Below, in pieces: positions 5,309 through 16,108 of a stretch of DNA of 64,000 bases; within the stretch, counting starts at the first letter, position 1; every line of letters begins with the position of its first letter. Under the pieces are notes generated by a model. That model made no database searches. It saw only the letters and a program-made list of their open reading frames with translations, and was not told where the DNA came from. The position numbers and the translations under genes are program-made. The stretch comes from Promethearchaeota archaeon (lineage in GTDB: Archaea; Asgardarchaeota; Lokiarchaeia; Sigyniarchaeales; SOKP01), in assembly GCA_019058445.1 (NCBI GenBank), contig JAHPZA010000010.1, positions 512,001 through 576,000 of the forward strand, read 5' to 3'.

Positions 5309-5656
5309 TTAAGATTCATTTCCACAACTTTTACATATATAGCGTTTAGCATAAATCTTGATTCCTCCCATCTGGTGGAGGACATTGCTCTTATCTTCCT
5401 CTGTCTTGAAAGCTGTACCACCGCATTTTGTACATACTCTTCTCCCCTCTACAGGTGGCTTTTCTTTCATTTTTTCTTCTTCCTCTTGTTTTTCAACAAG
5501 AGCTGAAGGTTTAACAGTAGAAGCTGCTGATGCTGTACTTGTAGCAGCGGGTGTTGGTTGAGGAGCAGGCGCTTTACTTCCCATCTCCAGGACTTTATCA
5601 AGCTTTTGATCTATTTTTTTTAACATTTCTATTACTTTTTCTTCGAACTCTGACAA
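5309..5656 (-). CDS. Small protein: N-terminal helix, Pro/Ala/Ser linker, C-terminal zinc ribbon
   Basis: CTKCG...CKSCG; TTG start with GAGGAG upstream. Confidence 0.75.
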   Translation of the reverse strand: MSEFEEKVIEMLKKIDQKLDKVLEMGSKAPAPQPTPAATSTASAASTVKPSALVEKQEEEEKMKEKPPVEGRRVCTKCGGTAFKTEEDKSNVLHQMGGIKIYAKRYICKSCGNES

Positions 5657-5887: not shown

Positions 5888-6547
5888 ATGTTTTTAATGA
5901 CTGAAGCATCAGGAAAAGCGCTTAGTGGTTTAAGGGATCTGACCATGTTAAAATGGTATTGGATTCCTTTAATGGTGATTGTAATGTATATCTATGCCAA
6001 TGAGATGAAGAAAGCGAGAGAATCAGGGGACTGGAATGCTATATATTCCGGATTGACCGTATTTGGACTGGATTTTTTCAATGAGACATGGAACGGATGG
6101 GTATTTGCCATTACACAACACTCTGCGTTTTGGACAACGCCAGGAGATACCGCATTTCGCGTAATGGTTGGTTGGAATATTGAAATAATCTTTATGTTTC
6201 TAATAGCAGGTATTGTTTTCTATAATATGCTAGATGAAGACAAAGATAAAAAGATGTTTGGATTACCTAATCGCTGGGCAATGGCTATCGGATTTGCTGC
6301 ATTTGCTGTGTTCATCGAATGCATATTAAACATAGGTGGTCATCTTGTGTGGGAATATCCATGGTGGAATCTTTCTATTATGGGAATATGGTTAATTTTT
6401 ATTATCGGTTATTTCTTCTTTTTTGCAGGCGCTGTTATAGTTATTAATATGGATGAAGACAAGCATAAAAAGATAGCACTAGCTATTATTTATGCAGTAC
6501 CAATCATTATGAATATTATAGCACTTGGTCTTGGTTTGCATTATTAA
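5888..6547 (+). CDS. Conserved-looking polytopic membrane protein, function unknown
   Basis: About six TM segments, Trp-rich motifs (DFFNETWNGW, GWNIEI, VWEYPWW); GGAG upstream. Confidence 0.75.
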   Translation: MFLMTEASGKALSGLRDLTMLKWYWIPLMVIVMYIYANEMKKARESGDWNAIYSGLTVFGLDFFNETWNGWVFAITQHSAFWTTPGDTAFRVMVGWNIEIIFMFLIAGIVFYNMLDEDKDKKMFGLPNRWAMAIGFAAFAVFIECILNIGGHLVWEYPWWNLSIMGIWLIFIIGYFFFFAGAVIVINMDEDKHKKIALAIIYAVPIIMNIIALGLGLHY

Positions 6548-6573
6548 AATTTTATAAATATTATAAAAAAATC

Positions 6574-6616
6574 AGGGTGAAGGAGATATTATTCACCTTT
6601 TCTTTTTTTCTTTTTC
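6574..6616 (+). terminator. Hairpin plus T-tract, putative terminator
   Basis: GGTGAA-N10-TTCACC stem followed by a long T-rich run just after the 5888-6547 stop. Confidence 0.5.
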
Positions 6617-6674
6617 TAATAATTTTTTTTTTGATCAACAAAATTATAAAAATAAACAGAATAAATGATTAACT

Positions 6675-7877
6675 ATGGCATTTAAAGGTCTTTTTCCGAA
6701 ATTACATCCCATTAAAGAATTGAAAAATTCTCGGTTAATGGAAATTGCTCCCGATGTTTGGGAAATAGAAGGTTATATTTCTACACAATTTTTTATAAAA
6801 CCTGCATCTAGTAATATTTTTATCTTTAAGGATAATGATGATGTCCTGTTACTAGATACTGGACTGTATCCTTATTATCGAAAAATAATTATTGATGTCC
6901 TCTCAAAATTTAAAAGCCAAGGGGCAAAAAATCTAACATTATTAGTATCCCAGGGTCATTTTGATCATGTAGCAAATAATGATGTTATATTAGAAGCTGG
7001 TTATGATAATGTGCGATTTTTACTGCCTAAAATTGAATTGGGAACAATTGATTTATTTAATCATTTTACTGGGGATTTTGAAGAACTTGAAAATTATTAT
7101 AATCCCTATTCGATGCTTCCATTGCCTGTAAAGATGGCGAGTAAGATTTCTATAAAATTCGCTCGATCATTAATAGTACGTATGACTAAAAAACTGTTTA
7201 ATGGTATTGAAACTCTGGTCGATAAAGCAGAACTTCTTTCAATGGATTCTCGAGTAACAAAAAAAATTGGAGAGGTTGAATTTATGGGATGGGATGTTGG
7301 TCGATTTTTTGCGATTCATGATGGTGCTCATAGCCCAGGTCATATTTCTTTATATGATCCTAAAAATAAACTGTTAATGACTGGTGATTCTACTATTGAG
7401 ATTAATCCCCCCTTTTTCAATAGTAGGTTAGTAAAATGTATAGAGCTCATGGAAAAGTTTCGCAAAATAGCAGAACAGGGTTATGTTAATATTGCAATTG
7501 ATTCCCATCACAGCTCTACCTATTTTAGAAAAATTTTTGATAAATTTAATATCGATCCTTTACATCCTATTCAAATTGCAGATCTAGCTCATGGTAAAGA
7601 TGAATGTGTAGCATATTTTACTATGTTTGAAAATTATTATAGAGATTTGAAAGATGAAATACTCGCAGCACTTTCAAACCTAAAAGAAGCAACAATTCCC
7701 GAATTAGTGAAGGAATTCAAGAAATCTGACAATGAAGCTGTGAAAATGAAAATAGCTATGAAATTTCCAAATTTTCCCTCTCGCTTAGATGTGCTAATTG
7801 CTGTAGTATTAGATGAACTCAAAGTGCCGTATAGAAGAAAAGGTAAAAAAGTAATATTTACATCAATTAGTTCCTAA
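6675..7877 (+). CDS. MBL-fold metallo-hydrolase with C-terminal helical/wHTH-like extension
   Basis: LLDTG, SQGHFDHV (variant HxHxDH), HSPGH, TGD. Confidence 0.8.
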   Translation: MAFKGLFPKLHPIKELKNSRLMEIAPDVWEIEGYISTQFFIKPASSNIFIFKDNDDVLLLDTGLYPYYRKIIIDVLSKFKSQGAKNLTLLVSQGHFDHVANNDVILEAGYDNVRFLLPKIELGTIDLFNHFTGDFEELENYYNPYSMLPLPVKMASKISIKFARSLIVRMTKKLFNGIETLVDKAELLSMDSRVTKKIGEVEFMGWDVGRFFAIHDGAHSPGHISLYDPKNKLLMTGDSTIEINPPFFNSRLVKCIELMEKFRKIAEQGYVNIAIDSHHSSTYFRKIFDKFNIDPLHPIQIADLAHGKDECVAYFTMFENYYRDLKDEILAALSNLKEATIPELVKEFKKSDNEAVKMKIAMKFPNFPSRLDVLIAVVLDELKVPYRRKGKKVIFTSISS

Positions 7878-7940: not shown

Positions 7941-10268
7941 TTAATTTCTTTGTTTTACTGGGTTTAAGACATTGAAAAAATCTCGTCTTACATTCACATT
8001 TGCTTGAAATTTAACAATAATCTTATTTCCTGAAAGAGTAGTGGCTAGAAAGTTTTTATAATTACTTCCGAATCTCGAGAATGAAATTATATCACCATCT
8101 TTTAACTTTGAATCCAATCTCGAAGCATCCTTGACCCTAAGATACATCCCGGGTTTTAAATCATTTAAATCATTAATATTATGAATACTAGAAAAGGAAT
8201 AAGAACCTGAATAATTTTCTACTATATAATCATATAATTGCTTTAAGGGTTTTTTTTCTAATTTGATTATCTCCCCTTTTAAGCCTCTTTTAGCAATAAG
8301 AAGCGCTGCAATCGCATGATCTACAAATCCTTTAGATCTTACTTCACTCACTAATTCACCTTTCTGCAGATGAAACAACGCTTCTTTAGTGGTTTTAAAC
8401 TCATCAACCAAGAAAATCTCGGCAGGAGCAAAACGATTCTTAGCATTTATGTCCGATTCCTCATATTCTTTAACAGTAGATAAGTCAGTTATTACACATG
8501 AGTTATCCTCACAGGGAATATTGAAAAATTCGATAAAAAAATCAATAATGAAATCTGAACCAGGTCCATTTCCAACAAAGATCTTATTAATTAAATCTCT
8601 TTCATTTCTTAAAAAACTCGTCAATTCCATATTTAATTGTCTTTTTAGGATATTATGGCTTCGAAGATTTTCTATATTGTTTTTCAGATTTACAAACCAT
8701 AGTGAAGGTAATTCACCTTTTTCAATTAAACAAAATCCGAAATGTCGAGTCCCAGGATCAACTGCGAGAATCACGTCATTCTGTTCGAATTTAAATAGAT
8801 GAATTTCAGCTCTTCCCTCAGATACTTTCATTAAAGAATTAAAAAAATTCTCGAAGTGATCATTCTTCACCTGCAAAAAAAAAGTATCTGTTTGGGATTG
8901 AAATAGAACCTCTATATTATATTTTTCAATTAAAGGAAACACATCAGTATAATTTTCTATTTTTATTATGATGTCTTGAGAAGGAACAATTTTGAGTATT
9001 TTTACCTTCTCAATTGCTTTTGCGATTGCTTGAGCGATATCGTCTTCATTTTTCCCTGAATATATGTCTACATGGAGCCCATCTAAATGAAATGCTTCGC
9101 AAGCAGCAGTGGCGGCTAAAATATCGTAAAGTTTCGTTACCTGATTATGTTCTCTTGATACTGTTAGTGCCTTTCTACATCTTGGAACAACACGGACAGA
9201 AGCAGATTTATGAGTTCCTTTACTGACTTTGTTAATAGTTATGATTCCTTTTATTTTTGAGCCAACCACTTTAAAGTCTATCAAGTCTTCAAGCCTTTCT
9301 TTAATAAATTCAAATTGTAAATCACCTACGACTAAGAGATTTATTATATTTCGTTCAGTATAATAATCGAATGGAATAATTCGTTTTAATTTTTCAAGAA
9401 TTTCTAAAGATAGTTTAAACTTATGAGAATCATTAATCTCAATAAAAAATTCCTTCCTTGGAAGAACCTCCGCCATTATACTTTTTATTTTTGGAGATAT
9501 AAACTTTCCATGATAATATTTAGTACCTAAACTGAATTTAGGATCAATATTTAGTAATAGTTGGACTATTTCTCCTTCAGAGGCTTGTTTAAGCGGTCTT
9601 CTCTTTAAGGAATAAATGGCCTTGGTTTTTACTTCGGAAGTTAGAGTCCTTTTAGATTCTAATTCTCCTGAAAGAATTCCAACATTAATTATATTTCCAA
9701 GTCCTTTCCTATATACATAACCTAGAATGATAAATGATAAATCTTCTTCTATTTTTTTCCTATGTGTTGTATAAATTGAGATTTTGGAAATTAATTCTTC
9801 AATCCCTATATTTTCTCTGGCAGAAGTTTGAATTATTGATATCGCGCGAGCATTAAGTTTTTCCAAATCTTTTTTTATTTTATCAACGTTCGCAGTTGGT
9901 TGGTCCATTTTTGTAGCTGCAATTATGATTGGTATATTCTTTTCCTTTGCTTTTTCAAAAAGCCAGAATGTTCTTGCTTGAAAACCCTCCGTGCCAGAAA
10001 CTACTAAAACTAATAAATCAGCAAATTCAAGCCCTAATGCCGGACTGGCTTTAAAATCGGAATGTCCAGCAGTATCGAGTAGATTTAACAAAAGTTTTGA
10101 TTTTTTTATTTCGAATTGAATTACTTTTAGACTTACAGTTGTTCCATGGGCTAGTTCAAAATCAAGATTATCAGGAAATTTACCTACAATTACCTCTATC
10201 AAAGAGCTTTTTCCTGCTTGGGCATGTCCTGCAAAAAGTACATTAAGGACTCTATACTTTTGTTCCAT
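7941..10268 (-). CDS. EF-G/EF-2-like translational GTPase fused to YqgF/Tex-like RNase H-fold domain
   Basis: G1 GHAQAGKS, G2 HGTTV, G3 DTAGH, G4 TKMD, G5 TSA; GDLQFEFIKERL; LMKVSEGRA; ILAVDPG..VGNG..VDE..VDHAIAALLI. Confidence 0.75.
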   Translation of the reverse strand: MEQKYRVLNVLFAGHAQAGKSSLIEVIVGKFPDNLDFELAHGTTVSLKVIQFEIKKSKLLLNLLDTAGHSDFKASPALGLEFADLLVLVVSGTEGFQARTFWLFEKAKEKNIPIIIAATKMDQPTANVDKIKKDLEKLNARAISIIQTSARENIGIEELISKISIYTTHRKKIEEDLSFIILGYVYRKGLGNIINVGILSGELESKRTLTSEVKTKAIYSLKRRPLKQASEGEIVQLLLNIDPKFSLGTKYYHGKFISPKIKSIMAEVLPRKEFFIEINDSHKFKLSLEILEKLKRIIPFDYYTERNIINLLVVGDLQFEFIKERLEDLIDFKVVGSKIKGIITINKVSKGTHKSASVRVVPRCRKALTVSREHNQVTKLYDILAATAACEAFHLDGLHVDIYSGKNEDDIAQAIAKAIEKVKILKIVPSQDIIIKIENYTDVFPLIEKYNIEVLFQSQTDTFFLQVKNDHFENFFNSLMKVSEGRAEIHLFKFEQNDVILAVDPGTRHFGFCLIEKGELPSLWFVNLKNNIENLRSHNILKRQLNMELTSFLRNERDLINKIFVGNGPGSDFIIDFFIEFFNIPCEDNSCVITDLSTVKEYEESDINAKNRFAPAEIFLVDEFKTTKEALFHLQKGELVSEVRSKGFVDHAIAALLIAKRGLKGEIIKLEKKPLKQLYDYIVENYSGSYSFSSIHNINDLNDLKPGMYLRVKDASRLDSKLKDGDIISFSRFGSNYKNFLATTLSGNKIIVKFQANVNVRRDFFNVLNPVKQRN

Positions 10269-10419: not shown

Positions 10420-11535
10420 ATGCCACTTGAAAAAATAACTAATTTACCTAGAGCCGTAACACTCCAATTAACAGAAGCATGTAATCTCCGTTGTAGAATG
10501 TGTTATTATTGGGGTGACACAGGTTGTTATTCTAATGCTGAAGCTGGAATGAAACCAAAAACACTAGAATTTGAACTCTTGAAAAAAGTTATAGATTATT
10601 TAGCCCCTGCAAAACCTTTTTATAGTCTTTTTGGTGGAGAACCTCTGCTATATCCGGAATTAGAAGAATTAATTCTTAAGATAAAAGGTTTAGGTTCAAT
10701 TATAGACACACCGACTAACGGAACGCTGTTAACAGAATTTGCACCTATGATCGTGCGGTATGGATTTGATTCTGTGAGAGTGTCCATTGACGGACCCCGT
10801 GAAATTAATGATTCCCAAAGGGGCAAAGGAAGTTATGATAAAGCGATGGCAGGAATTGAAGCACTTTACCAAGAAAAAATAAGAACTGGAAAACGCATTC
10901 CATATATTGATATAATATATACGATAACTCCTACAAATTATCAATCAATCAAACAATTTTTTCTACAAGAACTCAATCTTTCGGCCATTGATAGAGTATC
11001 AATTCAAATGGAAAATTTTCTAACAGAGGAAATGGGGCAACAATATTCACAATTTCTTAAATCCGAATTCGGTCTCACAAGTGAGAGATATTGGAGAGGG
11101 CTATTACGTTCTCCTGAAGATTTCAAAACAATAGATGTGAATTTGTTGGCAACCCAAGTGAATTCGGTTTGTAAACGCTTAAGTGGTCTTGGAAAGACTA
11201 TTATGCTATTGCCCCCAACTTTTTCTCAAGAGAATCTTTCTGCGTATCTTAAAGCGGATTGGAAAAATATGACTGATCAATATCATAGTTGTTTAGTTCC
11301 TTGGTTTGGAGTAGATATAACGGCTAACGGAGATTTAGCTCCATGTCATGTATTTTATGATCTCGTAATGGGTAATCTGCATGAACAGACTTTTGAAGAA
11401 ATATGGAATGGAGATAATTATCAAAGATTTCGAGAATATATGCTGCAAAATAAATTTTTAAAAATTTGCCGAGGTTGCTGCATTCTTTATCTGGCAGGGA
11501 AGAAAAAAAGAAAAAGAGATCTCAAAAAGCAATGA
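10420..11535 (+). CDS. Radical SAM/SPASM domain protein
   Basis: CNLRCRMC, FGGEP, TNG, VSIDG, CLVPW..GDLAPC..GNL..EIWNG..CRGCC. Confidence 0.88.
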   Translation: MPLEKITNLPRAVTLQLTEACNLRCRMCYYWGDTGCYSNAEAGMKPKTLEFELLKKVIDYLAPAKPFYSLFGGEPLLYPELEELILKIKGLGSIIDTPTNGTLLTEFAPMIVRYGFDSVRVSIDGPREINDSQRGKGSYDKAMAGIEALYQEKIRTGKRIPYIDIIYTITPTNYQSIKQFFLQELNLSAIDRVSIQMENFLTEEMGQQYSQFLKSEFGLTSERYWRGLLRSPEDFKTIDVNLLATQVNSVCKRLSGLGKTIMLLPPTFSQENLSAYLKADWKNMTDQYHSCLVPWFGVDITANGDLAPCHVFYDLVMGNLHEQTFEEIWNGDNYQRFREYMLQNKFLKICRGCCILYLAGKKKRKRDLKKQ

Positions 11536-11550
11536 AAAAAACTTAAGTTA

Positions 11551-11601
11551 GAACCATTTTGAAATTGATTTAATCTTACTCTCATTTCTTAAAATGGTTT
11601 C
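11551..11601. repeat. Imperfect inverted repeat (hairpin)
   Basis: AACCATTTT-GAAA-T-TGA ... TCA-TTTC-TT-AAAATGGTT. Confidence 0.6.
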
Positions 11602-11644
11602 ATTAAAAACTAAAATTTAATATTTACAGTAAATATTTTGCATT

Positions 11645-12331
11645 ATGAAACGAGATGAAGGACTTTTTAATCACTTTTTATTTAATTGCAAGTTAGAATT
11701 AAAAAAATTGCTTAATTTCCCCCATAGAATTACTCGTAGATCTAAGATTAAGAAATATTATAAGACTCATGATGAGATAAAGATCCACTTTGGAGGGGGA
11801 AAAGATAAGTTAGAGGGATTTCTCAATACGGACATTATTGGAAAGATTCCAATTAATATCACAAAAAAATTGCCTTTCCCTTTAGAATCAGTTAATATAA
11901 TTTACTCTTGTCATGTTATAGAACACCTTTTTTATAAACATTTTAAAAATTTTTTAAAAGAATCCTTTAGGGTATTGAAAAAAGATGGAAAGCATATCAT
12001 CATGACTCCATCTTTAACACGCTTAATCAATGCCTTGTATTATGAGGAGGATTTAAAATCTCCTCTATTAAAAGGACATGAAAAATTAGCAGGTGTTGAG
12101 CTTGATCCAGCACTATTATTAAACCGTATGATGAATACTTATTATGGTCATAGATTTATTCATGATTTGGAATCAATAAATCGCGTTGCAGAAAAGATTG
12201 GATATTCTGAAATAAAAATAATTAAGATCCCAGATATCCCTGACGAAATCATAAAAAAATATGCAATTATGAGGGAGAATAAGGGCGAAAGATGGAAAAT
12301 TGAAACAGAAACATATTTACTCATTAAATAA
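11645..12331 (+). CDS. Class I SAM-dependent methyltransferase (type 11-like)
   Basis: IHFGGG, NTDI, LPF..SV..IYSCHVIEH, RVLKKDG. Confidence 0.8.
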   Translation: MKRDEGLFNHFLFNCKLELKKLLNFPHRITRRSKIKKYYKTHDEIKIHFGGGKDKLEGFLNTDIIGKIPINITKKLPFPLESVNIIYSCHVIEHLFYKHFKNFLKESFRVLKKDGKHIIMTPSLTRLINALYYEEDLKSPLLKGHEKLAGVELDPALLLNRMMNTYYGHRFIHDLESINRVAEKIGYSEIKIIKIPDIPDEIIKKYAIMRENKGERWKIETETYLLIK

Positions 12332-12341
12332 TAAAATTAGT

Positions 12342-12803
12342 TTAATAATTTCTTCTATACCCTTCTATTGATTCAAGATAATCTAAAATAGATTCTCGTA
12401 TTTCAATGGCAGGTAATATCTGATGCGACTTCCATACATAATTCATAGCATCACGCCAGCTCCATGAAGGATTTTCTTTTAATAACCACGCGACTACTAA
12501 TCCTCCACTCCGTGATATACCCATTGCACAGTGCACTAAAACCTTCCCTTTCTTTTCTTTAATATGTTTATCCATGAAAGCTAAAATATCTTTAATAAGT
12601 TCATGAGGTGGATATGTATTATCTGGAAATCCTTTATATAAGTAAGCATATCTTCGAAAAGGAGGCATATAATGTTTTTTTTCCATCAAGTTTACAATCG
12701 CAGTAATGCCTTCTTGTTCCAACTTATCAAAATTTAATCTTGGCCAATAAGCACCTATATAAAGGTTCTCAATAACTTTATATATCTCATCCATATCAGG
12801 CAT
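12342..12803 (-). CDS. Dual-specificity protein phosphatase
   Basis: NLYIG, GITAIVNL, VLVHCAMGISRS (CX5R). Confidence 0.9.
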   Translation of the reverse strand: MPDMDEIYKVIENLYIGAYWPRLNFDKLEQEGITAIVNLMEKKHYMPPFRRYAYLYKGFPDNTYPPHELIKDILAFMDKHIKEKKGKVLVHCAMGISRSGGLVVAWLLKENPSWSWRDAMNYVWKSHQILPAIEIRESILDYLESIEGYRRNY

Positions 12804-12932: not shown

Positions 12933-13319
12933 TTATTGAATTTCACTTAAATCGCGACTAGCTATTATATTGGCACCAGAACCTAAAATATTTTCAATTA
13001 AAATGTCACCGGCTTTTATAGGAGCTTTTATCTGTTTCACAGCAATTTCTTTTACAGCTTCTTCAAGTTTATCTTTCAAAATAGGCACATCCGTTCTAAC
13101 AGGAACTAACGGCAGAAATCCATTTTGAACTCTCATGGTTGTCGTCAAAATCCTTTTTGGTTCATAATATTCTTGTTGTGCATATTCTAAACCTCTCTTG
13201 CATGTATATCCCTCAAAACTGATATCTCCACTCTCATTTTTTTTCACTTGAATTTCACAACCTGTAGGACATACGATACAACGGATCACCCGGACTACAC
13301 TTTGGCTACTTTCTTCCAT
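12933..13319 (-). CDS. DUF1667 / CxxC small subunit of G3PDH-like complex
   Basis: CIVCPTGC, GYTCKRG, P.RILTTT; last gene of the three-gene operon. Confidence 0.85.
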   Translation of the reverse strand: MEESSQSVVRVIRCIVCPTGCEIQVKKNESGDISFEGYTCKRGLEYAQQEYYEPKRILTTTMRVQNGFLPLVPVRTDVPILKDKLEEAVKEIAVKQIKAPIKAGDILIENILGSGANIIASRDLSEIQ

Positions 13320-13325
13320 CTTTTA

Positions 13326-14639
13326 TCAATCCTCCTCAATTAATACTTCAGGTCGAGGTATAACTTCGATTTCAATGCGTTTACAATCCTTATTTAAACC
13401 GATTTCTTCCAAATTTAGATTTAATTCGATCATTTCACTTGGTATAACATAAATTTTCTTTTTTTTATAGATAACTCCATTTTCGTCTTTAAATTGAATA
13501 AGCACTCTTCTATCAGGATATCTTACTCTAAAAGTAAATATGATCTCTTTTGCTATATCACTTTTATTTATTACATCCGGTTTGACGTAATTAACATTTT
13601 CTCCGGCAATACATTTTATTTGTCCGTTCTTTTTTGTATCATTTCCATATCTATTATTAATATAATCAATAGCATAGTTCCCCGCTCGTTTTGCTTCTGC
13701 AGTTACTAAATCAACTAAATCATGTACTTGTAGTACATTTCCGCAAGCGAAAACTCCTTCTATTGTTGTTTCCAAATTGTTATCGACAATTGGACCATTA
13801 TTAGAGGAAAGTTCTGCTCCTGCGTTGAATGTCAATTCATTTTCGGGAATTAGTCCAACAGATAACAAAAGCGTGTCACATTCTATAAATTTATCTGTAC
13901 CAATAACTCTATCAAAATTTCGGTCGACTTTTGAAATTGTGACTCCTTTTATCCTATTTGCACCGTGGATCTTTGTTACCGTATAGTTTGTAATTAGGGG
14001 AATATCATAATCTTCTAAACATTGTACTTGATTTCTTAATAAACCACTGACGTATGGCAGAATCTCAACAACTGCCTTGACTTTACAGCCCTCCCAAGTT
14101 AATCTTCGCGCCATAATCATCCCAATGTCTCCGCTTCCTAAAATCACGTATGTTTTTCCAGGCAACCACCCCTCCATATTTACAAATCTCTGGGCTTGAC
14201 CAGCAGTGTAGATCCCTGAGGGTCTAAAACCAGGTATATTGATTGCGCCTCTTGGTCTTTCACGACATCCCATTGCTAAAATTACGGCTTTTGCTTGTAT
14301 ATTAATAACTCCTTCTCGTTTATTTATAGCAATTAATGTTTTATATTGTTTCTCAGGCGTTCCCGGCTTTATTTCAATAACCATAGTATCAAGTTCATAG
14401 GGGATTTGTAATTTATGAACTTCATTGATAAATCTTTGAGCATATTCAGGACCAGTTAATTCTTCATTAAACTCTTTTAATCCAAAACCATTATGAATGC
14501 ATTGCAAAGTAATACCCCCCAATTCTCTATCTCTTTCTAATATTAATACACCTAGCCCCGCTTTTTTAACTTCAACTGCCGCTGCAAGACCTGCCGCTCC
14601 TGATCCGATTACTGCGACATCAGTTTCATATTTAATCAA
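13326..14639 (-). CDS. NAD(P)/FAD-dependent oxidoreductase
   Basis: GSGAAG, QCIHNGFG..ELTGPEYA, GCRER, GSGDIG, ACGNV. Confidence 0.9.
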   Translation of the reverse strand: MIKYETDVAVIGSGAAGLAAAVEVKKAGLGVLILERDRELGGITLQCIHNGFGLKEFNEELTGPEYAQRFINEVHKLQIPYELDTMVIEIKPGTPEKQYKTLIAINKREGVINIQAKAVILAMGCRERPRGAINIPGFRPSGIYTAGQAQRFVNMEGWLPGKTYVILGSGDIGMIMARRLTWEGCKVKAVVEILPYVSGLLRNQVQCLEDYDIPLITNYTVTKIHGANRIKGVTISKVDRNFDRVIGTDKFIECDTLLLSVGLIPENELTFNAGAELSSNNGPIVDNNLETTIEGVFACGNVLQVHDLVDLVTAEAKRAGNYAIDYINNRYGNDTKKNGQIKCIAGENVNYVKPDVINKSDIAKEIIFTFRVRYPDRRVLIQFKDENGVIYKKKKIYVIPSEMIELNLNLEEIGLNKDCKRIEIEVIPRPEVLIEED

Positions 14640-16108
14640 TCTTCGACCCCTCCCTGTTCCATGTTTTTCAGGATAAAATCTTTTGTTCTTCCTACTAAGA
14701 AGTTAGTATCTTCTCCTCTTTTCGTAACCTCATCATAAGGAATATTTAATTCTCGTGAAAGTATTTCAATCACGCGTGGCCGACAAAATCCACCTTGACA
14801 TCGACCCATCCCAGGTCTACACCTAAACTTCACACCATCTACCGTTCTTGCCCCTACCGGAGAATGAATTGAGTCAATAATTTCTTTCTCAGAAACAGTC
14901 TCACAACGGCAAATGATATTACCCCACGCAGGATCGTCTTTAATTTTTTGATCAAGCTCTTCCATAGTAAAGTCATGAAACCGTTCAGGTTTAGGCCTAA
15001 AAGGATTATAAGTTTCTTTTATTTTTAATTCTTCTCCGAGCAATTCAAGAAAACTTTCGACTTTTTCGGCGATTGCAAAACAGGAAGTTAAACCAGGAGA
15101 TAAAATTCCTGCTACATTAATAAAGCCATATACATCTGTATTGTCAATAATAAAATCATAAGTATCTGGGACAGCTCTAAGACCAGCAAAATTTCTGATA
15201 GCACTCCGTTCTGGGATATTTGGAACCAAACTTCTGGCGCCTTCCAGAATTTCTTTTAATCCCGCCGTTGTAGTTGCGATATCTTTTTTATCAGTAATAT
15301 TTTGGGCATTTGGACCAACAAATGTATTTTCATGAATCGTAGGACATACTAAGATACCTTTTGAGATTTTAGTGGGAGTCGGAAATAAGATTTTATTTAG
15401 ATGAAGAACATTTCGATCGAATAAGATATATTCCCCTTTTCTGGGCATAATATCAAAATAATCAAGACCTACCATTTTAGAAATCTTCCTAGCATATATT
15501 CCAGCGGCATTTATGACATTACGCCCTTCAAATTCATCTTGTTTTGTTTTAACCGTGAAAGTGTAATCAGAATGACTTATCTTTGAGACCTTATGGTTTC
15601 TGAAGAACTTAACACCATTCATCGCGGCGTTTTCTGCCAAAGCGAAAGTCATTTCATAGGGACTTACAATTCCAGCCGAAGGCGCATGCAAAACTCCCAC
15701 AACTTCCTCTGTTAAGCTGGGTTCCATATGTAATATTTTTTTCTGATCTAAAATTATCTCTAATCCGAGAACACCATCCTCCGTTCCTTTTTTTCTATAT
15801 TCTTCCAAAGTTTTTATTTGGTTATCTTCTAAAGCAACCACAAAAGAGCCAATTCTTTTAAAAGGAAAATTTAGCTCTTCTGCTGCTTGAGTATACATTT
15901 TATTACCTTTAATGCATAAGTTTCTTTTGACATACTCTCTTTCAGCAGCATATCCCGCATGAACAACACCAGAATTCGCTTTAGTAGTTCCCGAAGCTAA
16001 GTCTGCTTCTTTTTCTAATAAACATATTTTCAGATCATATTTTGATAAAGTACGTGCGATGGTGCAGCCGCTAATTCCTCCACCAATAATTATAACGTCA
16101 TAGATCAA
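14636..16108 (-). CDS. GlpA/glycerol-3-phosphate dehydrogenase-like FAD oxidoreductase with BFD-like [2Fe-2S] domain
   Basis: GGGISG, TTKANSGVVHAG, SPGLT, ICRCE..GMGRCQGGFC; 4-bp overlap with next gene. Confidence 0.85.
   Translation of the reverse strand: MIYDVIIIGGGISGCTIARTLSKYDLKICLLEKEADLASGTTKANSGVVHAGYAAEREYVKRNLCIKGNKMYTQAAEELNFPFKRIGSFVVALEDNQIKTLEEYRKKGTEDGVLGLEIILDQKKILHMEPSLTEEVVGVLHAPSAGIVSPYEMTFALAENAAMNGVKFFRNHKVSKISHSDYTFTVKTKQDEFEGRNVINAAGIYARKISKMVGLDYFDIMPRKGEYILFDRNVLHLNKILFPTPTKISKGILVCPTIHENTFVGPNAQNITDKKDIATTTAGLKEILEGARSLVPNIPERSAIRNFAGLRAVPDTYDFIIDNTDVYGFINVAGILSPGLTSCFAIAEKVESFLELLGEELKIKETYNPFRPKPERFHDFTMEELDQKIKDDPAWGNIICRCETVSEKEIIDSIHSPVGARTVDGVKFRCRPGMGRCQGGFCRPRVIEILSRELNIPYDEVTKRGEDTNFLVGRTKDFILKNMEQGGVED

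Follow-up and report, generated by a model that had tools for sequence, protein, structure and literature searches.

The 64,000-nucleotide window analyzed here (contig JAHPZA010000010.1, positions 512,001 to 576,000, of the Lokiarchaeial Promethearchaeota archaeon assembly GCA_019058445.1) contains a gene for a 775-residue protein in which an EF-G-like GTPase runs on into a YqgF-type nuclease domain. The protein is best explained as a member of a distinct, hitherto undescribed subfamily of translational GTPases, in which a predicted G-II-III-IV-V body like that of EF-G and EF-2 is followed by a C-terminal YqgF/RuvX-type RNase H-fold and a small barrel of a nucleic-acid-binding type. The domain architecture, the conserved GTPase and nuclease residues, the conservation of the fusion, and the accessory status of the gene are established here. 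By analogy with its parts, the protein may act as a ribosome-docked, GTP-gated ribonuclease (RNase), a proposal that has roughly an equal chance of being right or wrong.

The GTPase Domain

A preliminary description of this gene, made from its letters and translation, had assigned all five translational GTPase motifs and the catalytic His to the N-terminal domain. Each lies where it was placed, with GHAQAGKS at residues 14–21, ELAHGTTV at residues 38–45, DTAGH at residues 65–69, TKMD at residues 119–122, and TSA at residues 148–150. In an alignment of 33 homologs, G1 GHAQAGKS, the switch-I Thr44, G3 DTAGH with His69, G4 TKMD, and G5 TSA are invariant, and G19, K20, S21, T44, D65, G68, H69, K120, D122, and S149 remain so when relatives of 30–37% identity are added. 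Pfam GTP_EFTU matches residues 6–164 with an E value of 6e-26. The motif set lies far beyond chance, given this match and an invariance that mostly holds even at 30–37% identity.

The protein bears the marks of the translational GTPase superfamily, namely G1 to G5 and a switch-II DxxGH followed directly by the β-barrel of domain II. Its closest solved structures and NCBIfam models are the G domains of LepA, IF-2, Tet(M), RF3, SelB, and EF-G, all of them matched far under the full-length family cut-offs, and the partial NCBIfam matches of the G domain are to IF-2, LepA, Tet, RF3, and EF-G. Since the G domain spans only about 170 residues, the G′ insert is absent, as had been suggested.

An EF-G-Like Body

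The protein was modeled by AlphaFold2 as two separate parts, residues 168–500 (G domain omitted) and residues 488–775. The first model, with a mean predicted local distance difference test score (pLDDT) of 73.6, is predicted to run in the order β-barrel, β-α-β-β-α-β, four strands with two helices, and again β-α-β-β-α-β. Its domains are confidently predicted and their mutual arrangement is not, since the predicted template modeling score (pTM) is 0.37. When this model was compared with the PDB by Foldseek, the top 50 or so matches were EF-G, EF-G2, mitochondrial EF-G, and archaeal and eukaryotic EF-2, with E values from 2e-15 downward over 370–415 columns. VIA-align placed residues 268–494 (model residues 101–327) onto residues 404–673 of S. 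aureus EF-G, which are domains III–V, with 223 residues aligned and a Z score of 12.6, and placed model residues 5–327 onto residues 304–674 of T. thermophilus EF-G, domains II–V, with 312 aligned. Thus residues 270–495, on whose fold the preliminary description had staked its reading, are predicted to adopt the fold of EF-G domains III–V. Domain II by itself aligns with domain 2 of EF-Tu, EF1A, and IF2 at Z 11–12 (root-mean-square deviation about 2 Å, 80–88 residues aligned).

Sequence comparison follows the same order. A 20-sequence family alignment of the middle region, compared by hhalign with eight bacterial EF-Gs, gave a single colinear alignment of 293 columns to EF-G residues 318–670 (E 1.5e-4, probability 51%), in which GDLQFEFIKERL pairs with GELHLEIIVDRL, LDGLHVDIYSGKNEDDIAQAIAKAI with DGSYHxVDSSExAFKIA, IVPSQD with LLEPIM, and FNSLMKVSEGRA with LRSxTxGRA. 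In the shorter form of these motifs, GDLQFEF of the family corresponds to GELHLEI of EF-G, DGLHVD..G..E..IA to DGSYHxVDSSExAF, and SEGRA to TxGRA. The likenesses to domain III, the domain IV–V junction, and domain V that had been drawn by eye are thereby recovered, and the segments in question were located at residues 312–325 (VVGDLQFEFIKERL), 418–429 (AIEKVKILKIVP), and 476–487 (FNSLMKVSEGRA). Among the relatives, Pfam EF-G_D2 is matched at best with E 2.1e-7 and GTP_EFTU_D2 with 1.8e-4, and one relative matches EFG_C with E 0.013. A sequence-profile search of the PDB with the middle and C-terminal parts returned chance-level matches only (protein kinase C, Mx1).

The EF-G span 404–673 exceeds the matching residues 268–494 by about 40 residues. 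The shortening of domain IV that had been proposed therefore holds, at roughly 40 residues relative to EF-G, but not the view that much of the domain is deleted. For the invariant domain IV loop of EF-G, Q-GG-GQ (the GGxGQ of loop I), no counterpart was found in the hhalign alignment, where its columns fall on a shorter, unrelated loop. The conserved His of the domain IV tip (the diphthamide site; here H399) survives in the Lokiarchaeial clade alone. The body is thus EF-G-like in architecture but lacks a translocase hallmark, and a role as a translocase is unlikely because the tip-loop motif is missing.

The Nuclease Domain and Tail

YqgF proteins are defined by three conserved carboxylates, an Asp in β1, a Glu after β5, and an Asp on the C-terminal helix, of which Tex lacks the third (PMC3985635; PMC9601230 for the YqgF residues). 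The YqgF of D. radiodurans is an Mn-dependent RNase that requires D22, E106, and D122, and that of E. coli is reported to process the precursor of 16S ribosomal RNA (rRNA) only in 70S ribosomes (PMC9601230). In the 775-residue protein, the motifs that had been read as the acidic pattern of YqgF and Tex are all in place: ILAVDPG (D504), VGNG (residues 565–568), VDE (E623), and VDHAIAALLI (D650), followed in the tail by LKPGMYLRV...LKDGDII. A 20-sequence alignment of residues 494–672 that included the divergent relatives was compared by hhalign with ten bacterial RuvX sequences from five phylum-level groups. It matched positions 2–128 of the 133 RuvX positions over 114 columns (probability 95.1%, E 3.2e-8) and paired D504, D622-E623, and D650 with the invariant RuvX residues D7 (β1), D92-E93 (after β5), and D119 (last helix). 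The RNase H-like assignment of residues 499–665 and their acidic pattern are in this way borne out. D504, E623, and D650 are invariant across the Lokiarchaeial, Odin-type, and Methanopyrus forms at 30–37% identity, and 12 of 20 family members match Pfam RuvX (PF03652) at E ≤ 0.1 (best E 3.5e-7). An Odin-type fragment of the family is named "Holliday junction resolvase RuvX" by the NCBI pipeline. The insert at residues ~588–617 is kept within the Lokiarchaeial clade and is missing from the Odin-type and Methanopyrus relatives.

The model of residues 488–775 (mean pLDDT 69) is good at residues 499–600 and 709–775 and poor at residues 624–675. Its strands and helices follow the RNase H-like order β-β-β-α-β-α-β-α, and Foldseek matched it to RuvX (7ess), RuvC, and YeaZ at probability 1.0. 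The VIA search gave Z scores of 7.7 for Tex, 7.3 for B. subtilis YqgF (1vhx), 7.3 for Spt6, 6.9 for RuvC, and 6.8 for E. coli YqgF (1nmn). Pantothenate kinase, ParM, and Hsp70 outscored YqgF (about 7) at Z 8–9.7. The predicted fold by itself would thus be described as RNase H-like with a small barrel; since VIA could not separate YqgF from other RNase H and ASKHA folds, the assignment to the YqgF family rests on profile comparison and motifs.

For the tail, the small barrel that had been noted is predicted and is preceded by a short helical linker; its type, described earlier as KOW- or SH3-like, may be SH3, KOW, or S1. Foldseek matched the C-terminal model to a retroviral integrase core with its SH3-like C-terminal domain (E 3e-5), and VIA matched the tail to a small barrel protein (Z 6.7). 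A feature search of the ESM Atlas with the tail gave no usable match.

Conservation and Distribution of the Fusion

A word-indexed search found about 90 full-length proteins of 760–786 residues and 56–89% identity, all from Promethearchaeota/Lokiarchaeia assemblies. They span NCBI, JGI, ENA, and Logan assemblies and, where the databases name them, are mostly called "GTP-binding protein." The start methionine of the open reading frame is the same as in the full-length homologs. The non-GTPase part alone, searched exhaustively by HMMER against 1.84 billion cluster representatives, yielded 14 proteins. Besides the Lokiarchaeial cluster and fragments, these comprise five clusters that are full-length but divergent, at 735–744 residues. 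These divergent relatives are 30–37% identical, and the named ones belong to Odinarchaeota, "Asgardarchaeum/Asgardarchaeia," and Methanopyrus; a Baldrarchaeia label is carried by a 330-residue fragment. No stand-alone form of the nuclease or of domains II–V occurred among the representatives, where the short matches look like fragments.

In whole-genome searches, which include the survey of Asgard genomes suggested by the preliminary description, 36 of 400 Asgard genomes carry the fusion as a single gene; among the 90 of high quality the figure is 11. Within the family of the window's own genome it is present in 33 of 134 genomes, and it is patchy even within genera (4/9 in the same genus, 11/42 and 2/54 in two others); several genomes that are 98–100% complete lack it. 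All six searched genomes of the GTDB phylum that contains Methanopyrus carry the gene, one of them on a contig of more than 1.58 Mb. A contig scan on a generic P-loop pattern gave, among the matches listed, mostly bacterial GTPases and at least two true relatives.

The fusion is real and conserved, and the claim that an EF-G-like domain order and a C-terminal RNase H-fold share one gene is supported by predicted structure, profiles, and this conservation. The gene is accessory rather than core, since it is missing from most Asgard genomes and the window's genome encodes a separate aEF2. So patchy a distribution speaks against a core role in ribosome maturation.

Phylogenetic Position

A tree of the G domain and domain II was built in IQ-TREE under LG+C20 from 42 sequences and 278 columns, leaving out RF3, SelB, Tet, the eukaryotic factors, and the genome's own eIF2-γ, whose frame looked incomplete. 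The family forms one clade (support 100/99) that lies outside IF2/aIF5B (100/99) and outside EF-Tu/aEF1A, and it is sister to the group of EF-G with aEF2, LepA, and TypA with moderate support (89/68). Within the family, the Asgard sequences group together to the exclusion of the Methanopyrus sequence (100/99). Since the family is nested neither in aEF2 nor in EF-G, it did not arise recently from the host EF-2. The comparison with EF-2 and LepA that had been proposed earlier thus points to a separate lineage, in a tree from which RF3 and SelB were omitted. The genome also encodes aEF1A, a 729-residue aEF2, an EF-2 paralog, and aIF5B, and the 775-residue protein is for this reason an extra, accessory factor.

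Comparison With Known Systems

EF-G and aEF2 share with the fusion a G domain with the catalytic His and domains II, III, IV, and V in the same order. They differ in having the G′ insert, a domain IV that is about 40 residues longer, and its GGxGQ tip loop. The fusion also scores only 28–55 bits on the NCBIfam EF-G models, against cut-offs of 513–890, reaches 55 bits where the EF-G/EF-2 families require 583–659, branches outside EF-G and aEF2 in the tree, carries a C-terminal nuclease and barrel extension of about 280 residues, and co-exists with a normal aEF2. The possibility that it is a translocase or a second EF-2 was considered and rejected on the missing tip-loop motif and the position in the tree.

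LepA (EF4) and BipA/TypA resemble the fusion as EF2-family members that lack the G′ insert and have a special C-terminal domain after domain V, and LepA is among its best G-domain sequence matches (PDB 2ywe, E 3e-16; NCBIfam lepA, 71 bits). However, neither LepA nor TypA has a domain IV or a nuclease as its C-terminal domain, and the family is not nested with them in the tree; VIA aligns 217 residues of the fusion to LepA, compared with more than 300 to EF-G.

On the nuclease side, the fusion shares with YqgF/RuvX the RNase H-like fold and the three carboxylates at family-specific places, and members of that family are RNases linked to 16S rRNA 5′-end processing on 70S ribosomes (PMC9601230). 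In contrast to the bacterial form, which stands alone at about 140 residues, the domain is here fused to a GTPase, has an insert of 20–30 residues in Lokiarchaeia, and in this protein falls under the Pfam cut-off. Tex and Spt6 are similar in that helices and a small barrel come after a YqgF-like domain, but the structural similarity is low (template modeling (TM) score only 0.37–0.39), the third carboxylate that Tex lacks is kept in the fusion, and Pfam Tex_N, HhH, and S1 found no match in the 775-residue protein or in the family members searched.

Both parts of the protein are of known kinds; what is new is that they are combined and that the GTPase forms a lineage of its own. The translational GTPases described so far act by moving, delivering, or displacing ligands at the ribosome, and to our knowledge none carries a catalytic nuclease. 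The 2015 catalog of translational GTPases lists no such archaeal family and no member with a catalytic nuclease (PMC4342817). The literature search likewise found no paper on a fusion of an EF-G-like GTPase with YqgF, in agreement with the preliminary description, which knew of no characterized example.

A Proposed Ribosome-Docked Nuclease and Its Alternatives

It is proposed that the protein in its GTP form would dock through its EF-G-like body in the ribosomal factor-binding site, as suggested by the fold and by the invariant His of switch II, a residue that the sarcin-ricin loop activates in this superfamily. Docking would set the YqgF domain beside RNA, whether messenger RNA (mRNA), transfer RNA (tRNA), or rRNA, either within the A-site and intersubunit region or close to it. 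The site formed by D504, E623, and D650 would then cut that RNA with a divalent metal, as the intact triad suggests, since D. radiodurans YqgF depends on the equivalent residues for its RNase activity. GTP hydrolysis would finally release the factor. The proposal draws on a GTPase fold and a His that is ribosome-activated in nearly all known members, and on the published RNase activity of YqgF, seen for E. coli only in 70S ribosomes (PMC9601230). Because the gene is accessory, a conditional role is more likely, for example in the quality control, rescue, or decay of ribosomes or mRNA, in ribosome processing linked to stress, or in the inactivation of ribosomes.

Several observations weigh against a ribosome-docked RNase. 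Not every member of this GTPase superfamily acts on ribosomes; CysN and Snu114 are not known to bind them. In translational GTPases the Asp of GHVDHGK aids catalysis, and the Lokiarchaeial P-loop has GHAQ or GHSQ in its place, so that GTPase chemistry may differ in this clade. The hhalign link of domains II–V to EF-G, with its probability of 51%, is weak taken alone. For the nuclease, the 775-residue protein scores 13.7 bits on Pfam RuvX, under the cut-off of 29.2, and a six-frame search of its own genome with PF03652 gave nothing at E ≤ 1. The catalytic half (residues 624–675) has a pLDDT below 50, so that confidence in the active-site geometry is low, and VIA gives only generic matches of the predicted fold to RNase H and ASKHA proteins at Z 7–10. 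Furthermore, no neighbor common to the Lokiarchaeial, Methanopyrus-lineage, and Asgardarchaeum loci was found, and genomic context thus gives no functional lead.

Among the alternatives, the one that survives best, though it is unlikely, keeps the ribosome-binding GTPase and lets the YqgF domain and barrel bind RNA without cutting it, as in Tex and Spt6, so that the protein would be an assembly, hibernation, rescue, or remodeling factor that grips rRNA, mRNA, or tRNA. The closest ESM Atlas shapes of the C-terminal model are indeed Tex-family clusters with YqgF, HhH, and S1 domains (TM score 0.37–0.39), VIA matches the YqgF domains of Tex and Spt6 at Z 7.2–7.7, and the helices and barrel of the tail recall the HhH and S1 modules of Tex. 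Majorek et al. (2014) moreover regarded nuclease activity as uncorroborated for Tex or YqgF (PMC3985635). However, RNase activity of YqgF has since been demonstrated (PMC9601230), and the family keeps all three carboxylates at 30% identity, in contrast to Tex, which lacks the third (PMC3985635); such retention is hard to account for unless the site is catalytic or binds metal.

An improbable variant retains the chemistry and changes the role, making the protein a conditional toxin or defense nuclease that acts on the ribosome or tRNA, for example in translation shutdown upon infection or stress. A distribution that is patchy within genera, with several nearly complete (98–100%) genomes lacking the gene, is consistent with such a role, as are the local gene insertions on both sides of the locus. 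Yet the sequence is well conserved across Lokiarchaeia (57–89% identity), synteny is stable beside metabolic genes rather than defense islands, and all six Methanopyrus-lineage genomes have the gene; the neighborhood comparison, in which PADLOC was not searched, revealed no antitoxin-like or immunity partner conserved across lineages.

Slightly less probable again is a DNA enzyme, in which a RuvX-type nuclease for Holliday junctions or other branched DNA would be joined to an EF-G-like body that no longer acts on the ribosome and serves instead as a GTP-driven regulator or as a mimic of nucleic acid. Holliday junction resolution requires dimerization. Foldseek also matches RuvC and an integrase core, the NCBI name of the Odin-type fragment points the same way, and some RuvX/YqgF proteins (M. 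tuberculosis, H. pylori) resolve Holliday junctions, as cited in two papers (PMC9601230; PMC11466669). Against this, the switch-II His, all translational GTPase motifs, and the full II–V body are conserved, which is unexpected if ribosome binding had been lost, and no DNA-repair genes lie nearby in the neighborhoods examined. Finally, the notion that an assembly chimera or mis-called open reading frame joins two unrelated genes is virtually without prospect and was rejected; nothing was found in its favor, and the same architecture recurs in one uninterrupted frame in about 90 independent database proteins, in 36 Asgard genomes, and in six Methanopyrus-lineage genomes, rather than only as separate genes.

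If the ribosome-docked RNase is taken one step further, the family could constitute a new class of translation factor, in which the docking mode of EF-G delivers a built-in endonuclease that cuts the mRNA, tRNA, or rRNA of chosen (stalled, immature, or surplus) ribosomes; this is put forward tentatively, as somewhat less probable than its opposite. Such a factor would be an archaeal, single-polypeptide counterpart of ribosome-coupled RNA cleavage, for which separate factors are needed elsewhere, and finding it in both Methanopyrus and Asgard archaea would suggest an ancient archaeal pathway that was lost repeatedly. Were RNA cut on the ribosome, GTPase proofreading would be linked directly to RNA cleavage, and the protein would become a candidate for those steps of archaeal ribosome-associated decay or rRNA processing whose nucleases are still to be named. 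It would also offer a physical explanation for a ribosome-dependent YqgF as reported for E. coli (PMC9601230). The Methanopyrus ortholog comes from a cultured hyperthermophile, which makes the idea directly testable by biochemistry and cryo-electron microscopy.

Gene Neighborhood and Other Observations

Table 1. Features of the GTPase-nuclease gene and two nearby genes, by position in the window.
Feature	Position	Strand	Basis
Whole gene, EF-G-like GTPase/YqgF-nuclease fusion; 775-residue open reading frame, stop codon included	7941..10268	minus	Open reading frame list and translation
G domain, residues 1–170; G1 GHAQAGKS, G2 T44, G3 DTAGH with catalytic H69, G4 TKMD, G5 TSA	9759..10268	minus	Pfam GTP_EFTU
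Domain II β-barrel, residues ~175–262	9483..9746	minus	VIA-align to domain 2 of EF-Tu/EF1A/IF2
Domain III, residues ~268–340, β-α-β-β-α-β; holds GDLQFEFIKERL	9249..9467	minus	Model secondary structure, VIA, hhalign
Shortened domain IV, residues ~341–428; holds LDGLHVDIYSGKNEDDIAQAIAKAIEK, aligned to EF-G DGSYHxVDSSExAF	8985..9248	minus	VIA, hhalign, EF-G invariant columns
Domain V, residues ~429–494, β-α-β-β-α-β; IVPSQD as EF-G LLEP, FNSLMKVSEGRA as LRSxTxGRA	8787..8984	minus	Model, VIA, hhalign
YqgF/RuvX-like RNase H-fold domain, residues ~497–668; invariant D504, G566/G568/G570, D622-E623, D650-H651	8265..8780	minus	hhalign, Pfam, fold matches
Variable insert in nuclease domain, residues ~588–617 (IPCEDNSCVITD...)	8418..8507	minus	Family alignment columns 609–640; low pLDDT
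Tail, residues 669–775; two short helices, then five-strand β-barrel (residues ~709–771), basic end PVKQRN	7944..8264	minus	Model pLDDT 80–90 over barrel
Dual-specificity phosphatase gene (HCxxGxxR)	12342..12803	minus	Pfam DSPc, E 2.8e-17
115-residue zinc-ribbon protein (CxxC...CxxC)	5309..5656	minus	Translation; no Pfam match

The gene order in several Lokiarchaeia is glycerol-3-phosphate-dehydrogenase-like genes, dual-specificity phosphatase, GTPase-nuclease, and 115-residue zinc-ribbon protein, the last three often on the same strand. The phosphatase gene lies directly upstream on the same strand in other Lokiarchaeia (loci L001, L096, L099, and L107), and the zinc-ribbon gene lies directly downstream on the same strand in several (L001, L092, L093, L098, and L101); in the window each is separated from the GTPase-nuclease gene by two inserted genes. 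The GTPase-nuclease gene is flanked by opposite-strand genes, metallo-β-lactamase-fold on one side and radical-SAM/SPASM on the other. On the phosphatase side, radical-SAM/SPASM and methyltransferase genes occupy positions 10420–12331 (plus strand), and this pair looks like a local insertion because the phosphatase adjoins the GTPase-nuclease gene in the four loci named. On the zinc-ribbon side, a 219-residue open reading frame with no Pfam match and the 400-residue metallo-β-lactamase-fold gene occupy positions 5888–7877 (plus strand). Beyond the phosphatase, positions 12933–16108 (minus strand) hold a DAO/BFD-type flavin adenine dinucleotide oxidoreductase, a pyridine-nucleotide-disulphide oxidoreductase, and a DUF1667 gene, which resemble the anaerobic glycerol-3-phosphate dehydrogenase set; this three-gene cluster keeps its place beside the phosphatase in L001 and L107.

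Outside Lokiarchaeia the phosphatase and zinc-ribbon neighbors are not conserved. In the Methanopyrus lineage the GTPase-nuclease gene is followed by a deoxycytidine triphosphate deaminase gene and a small metallo-β-lactamase-fold gene, an arrangement conserved in that lineage only, and on the Asgardarchaeum contig the neighbors are different again. In Methanopyrus genomes only, a 227-residue open reading frame with no Pfam match (L104:10229-10912) overlaps the stop codon of the GTPase-nuclease gene; it is 77–80% identical in L108 and L109 and is missing from the other Methanopyrus-lineage loci.

Two further translation-factor genes of the window's genome were noted. An eIF2-γ-like GTPase match (G000:C4:384272-384808, minus strand) starts at profile position 43, its frame opening without a P-loop (PWYDNVV...), and its N-terminal part may be interrupted or encoded in a different frame. 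The EF-2 paralog (G000:C10:682046-684310, minus strand; locus L122:47-2311) lacks the HRGGGQ motif of the diphthamide site. It also contains an in-frame TAG, between MTDIDKGKLYLL and SDDEEQERGITI, in a short insert before the switch-I ERGITI, which could mark a pseudogene, a sequencing error, or a recoding site.

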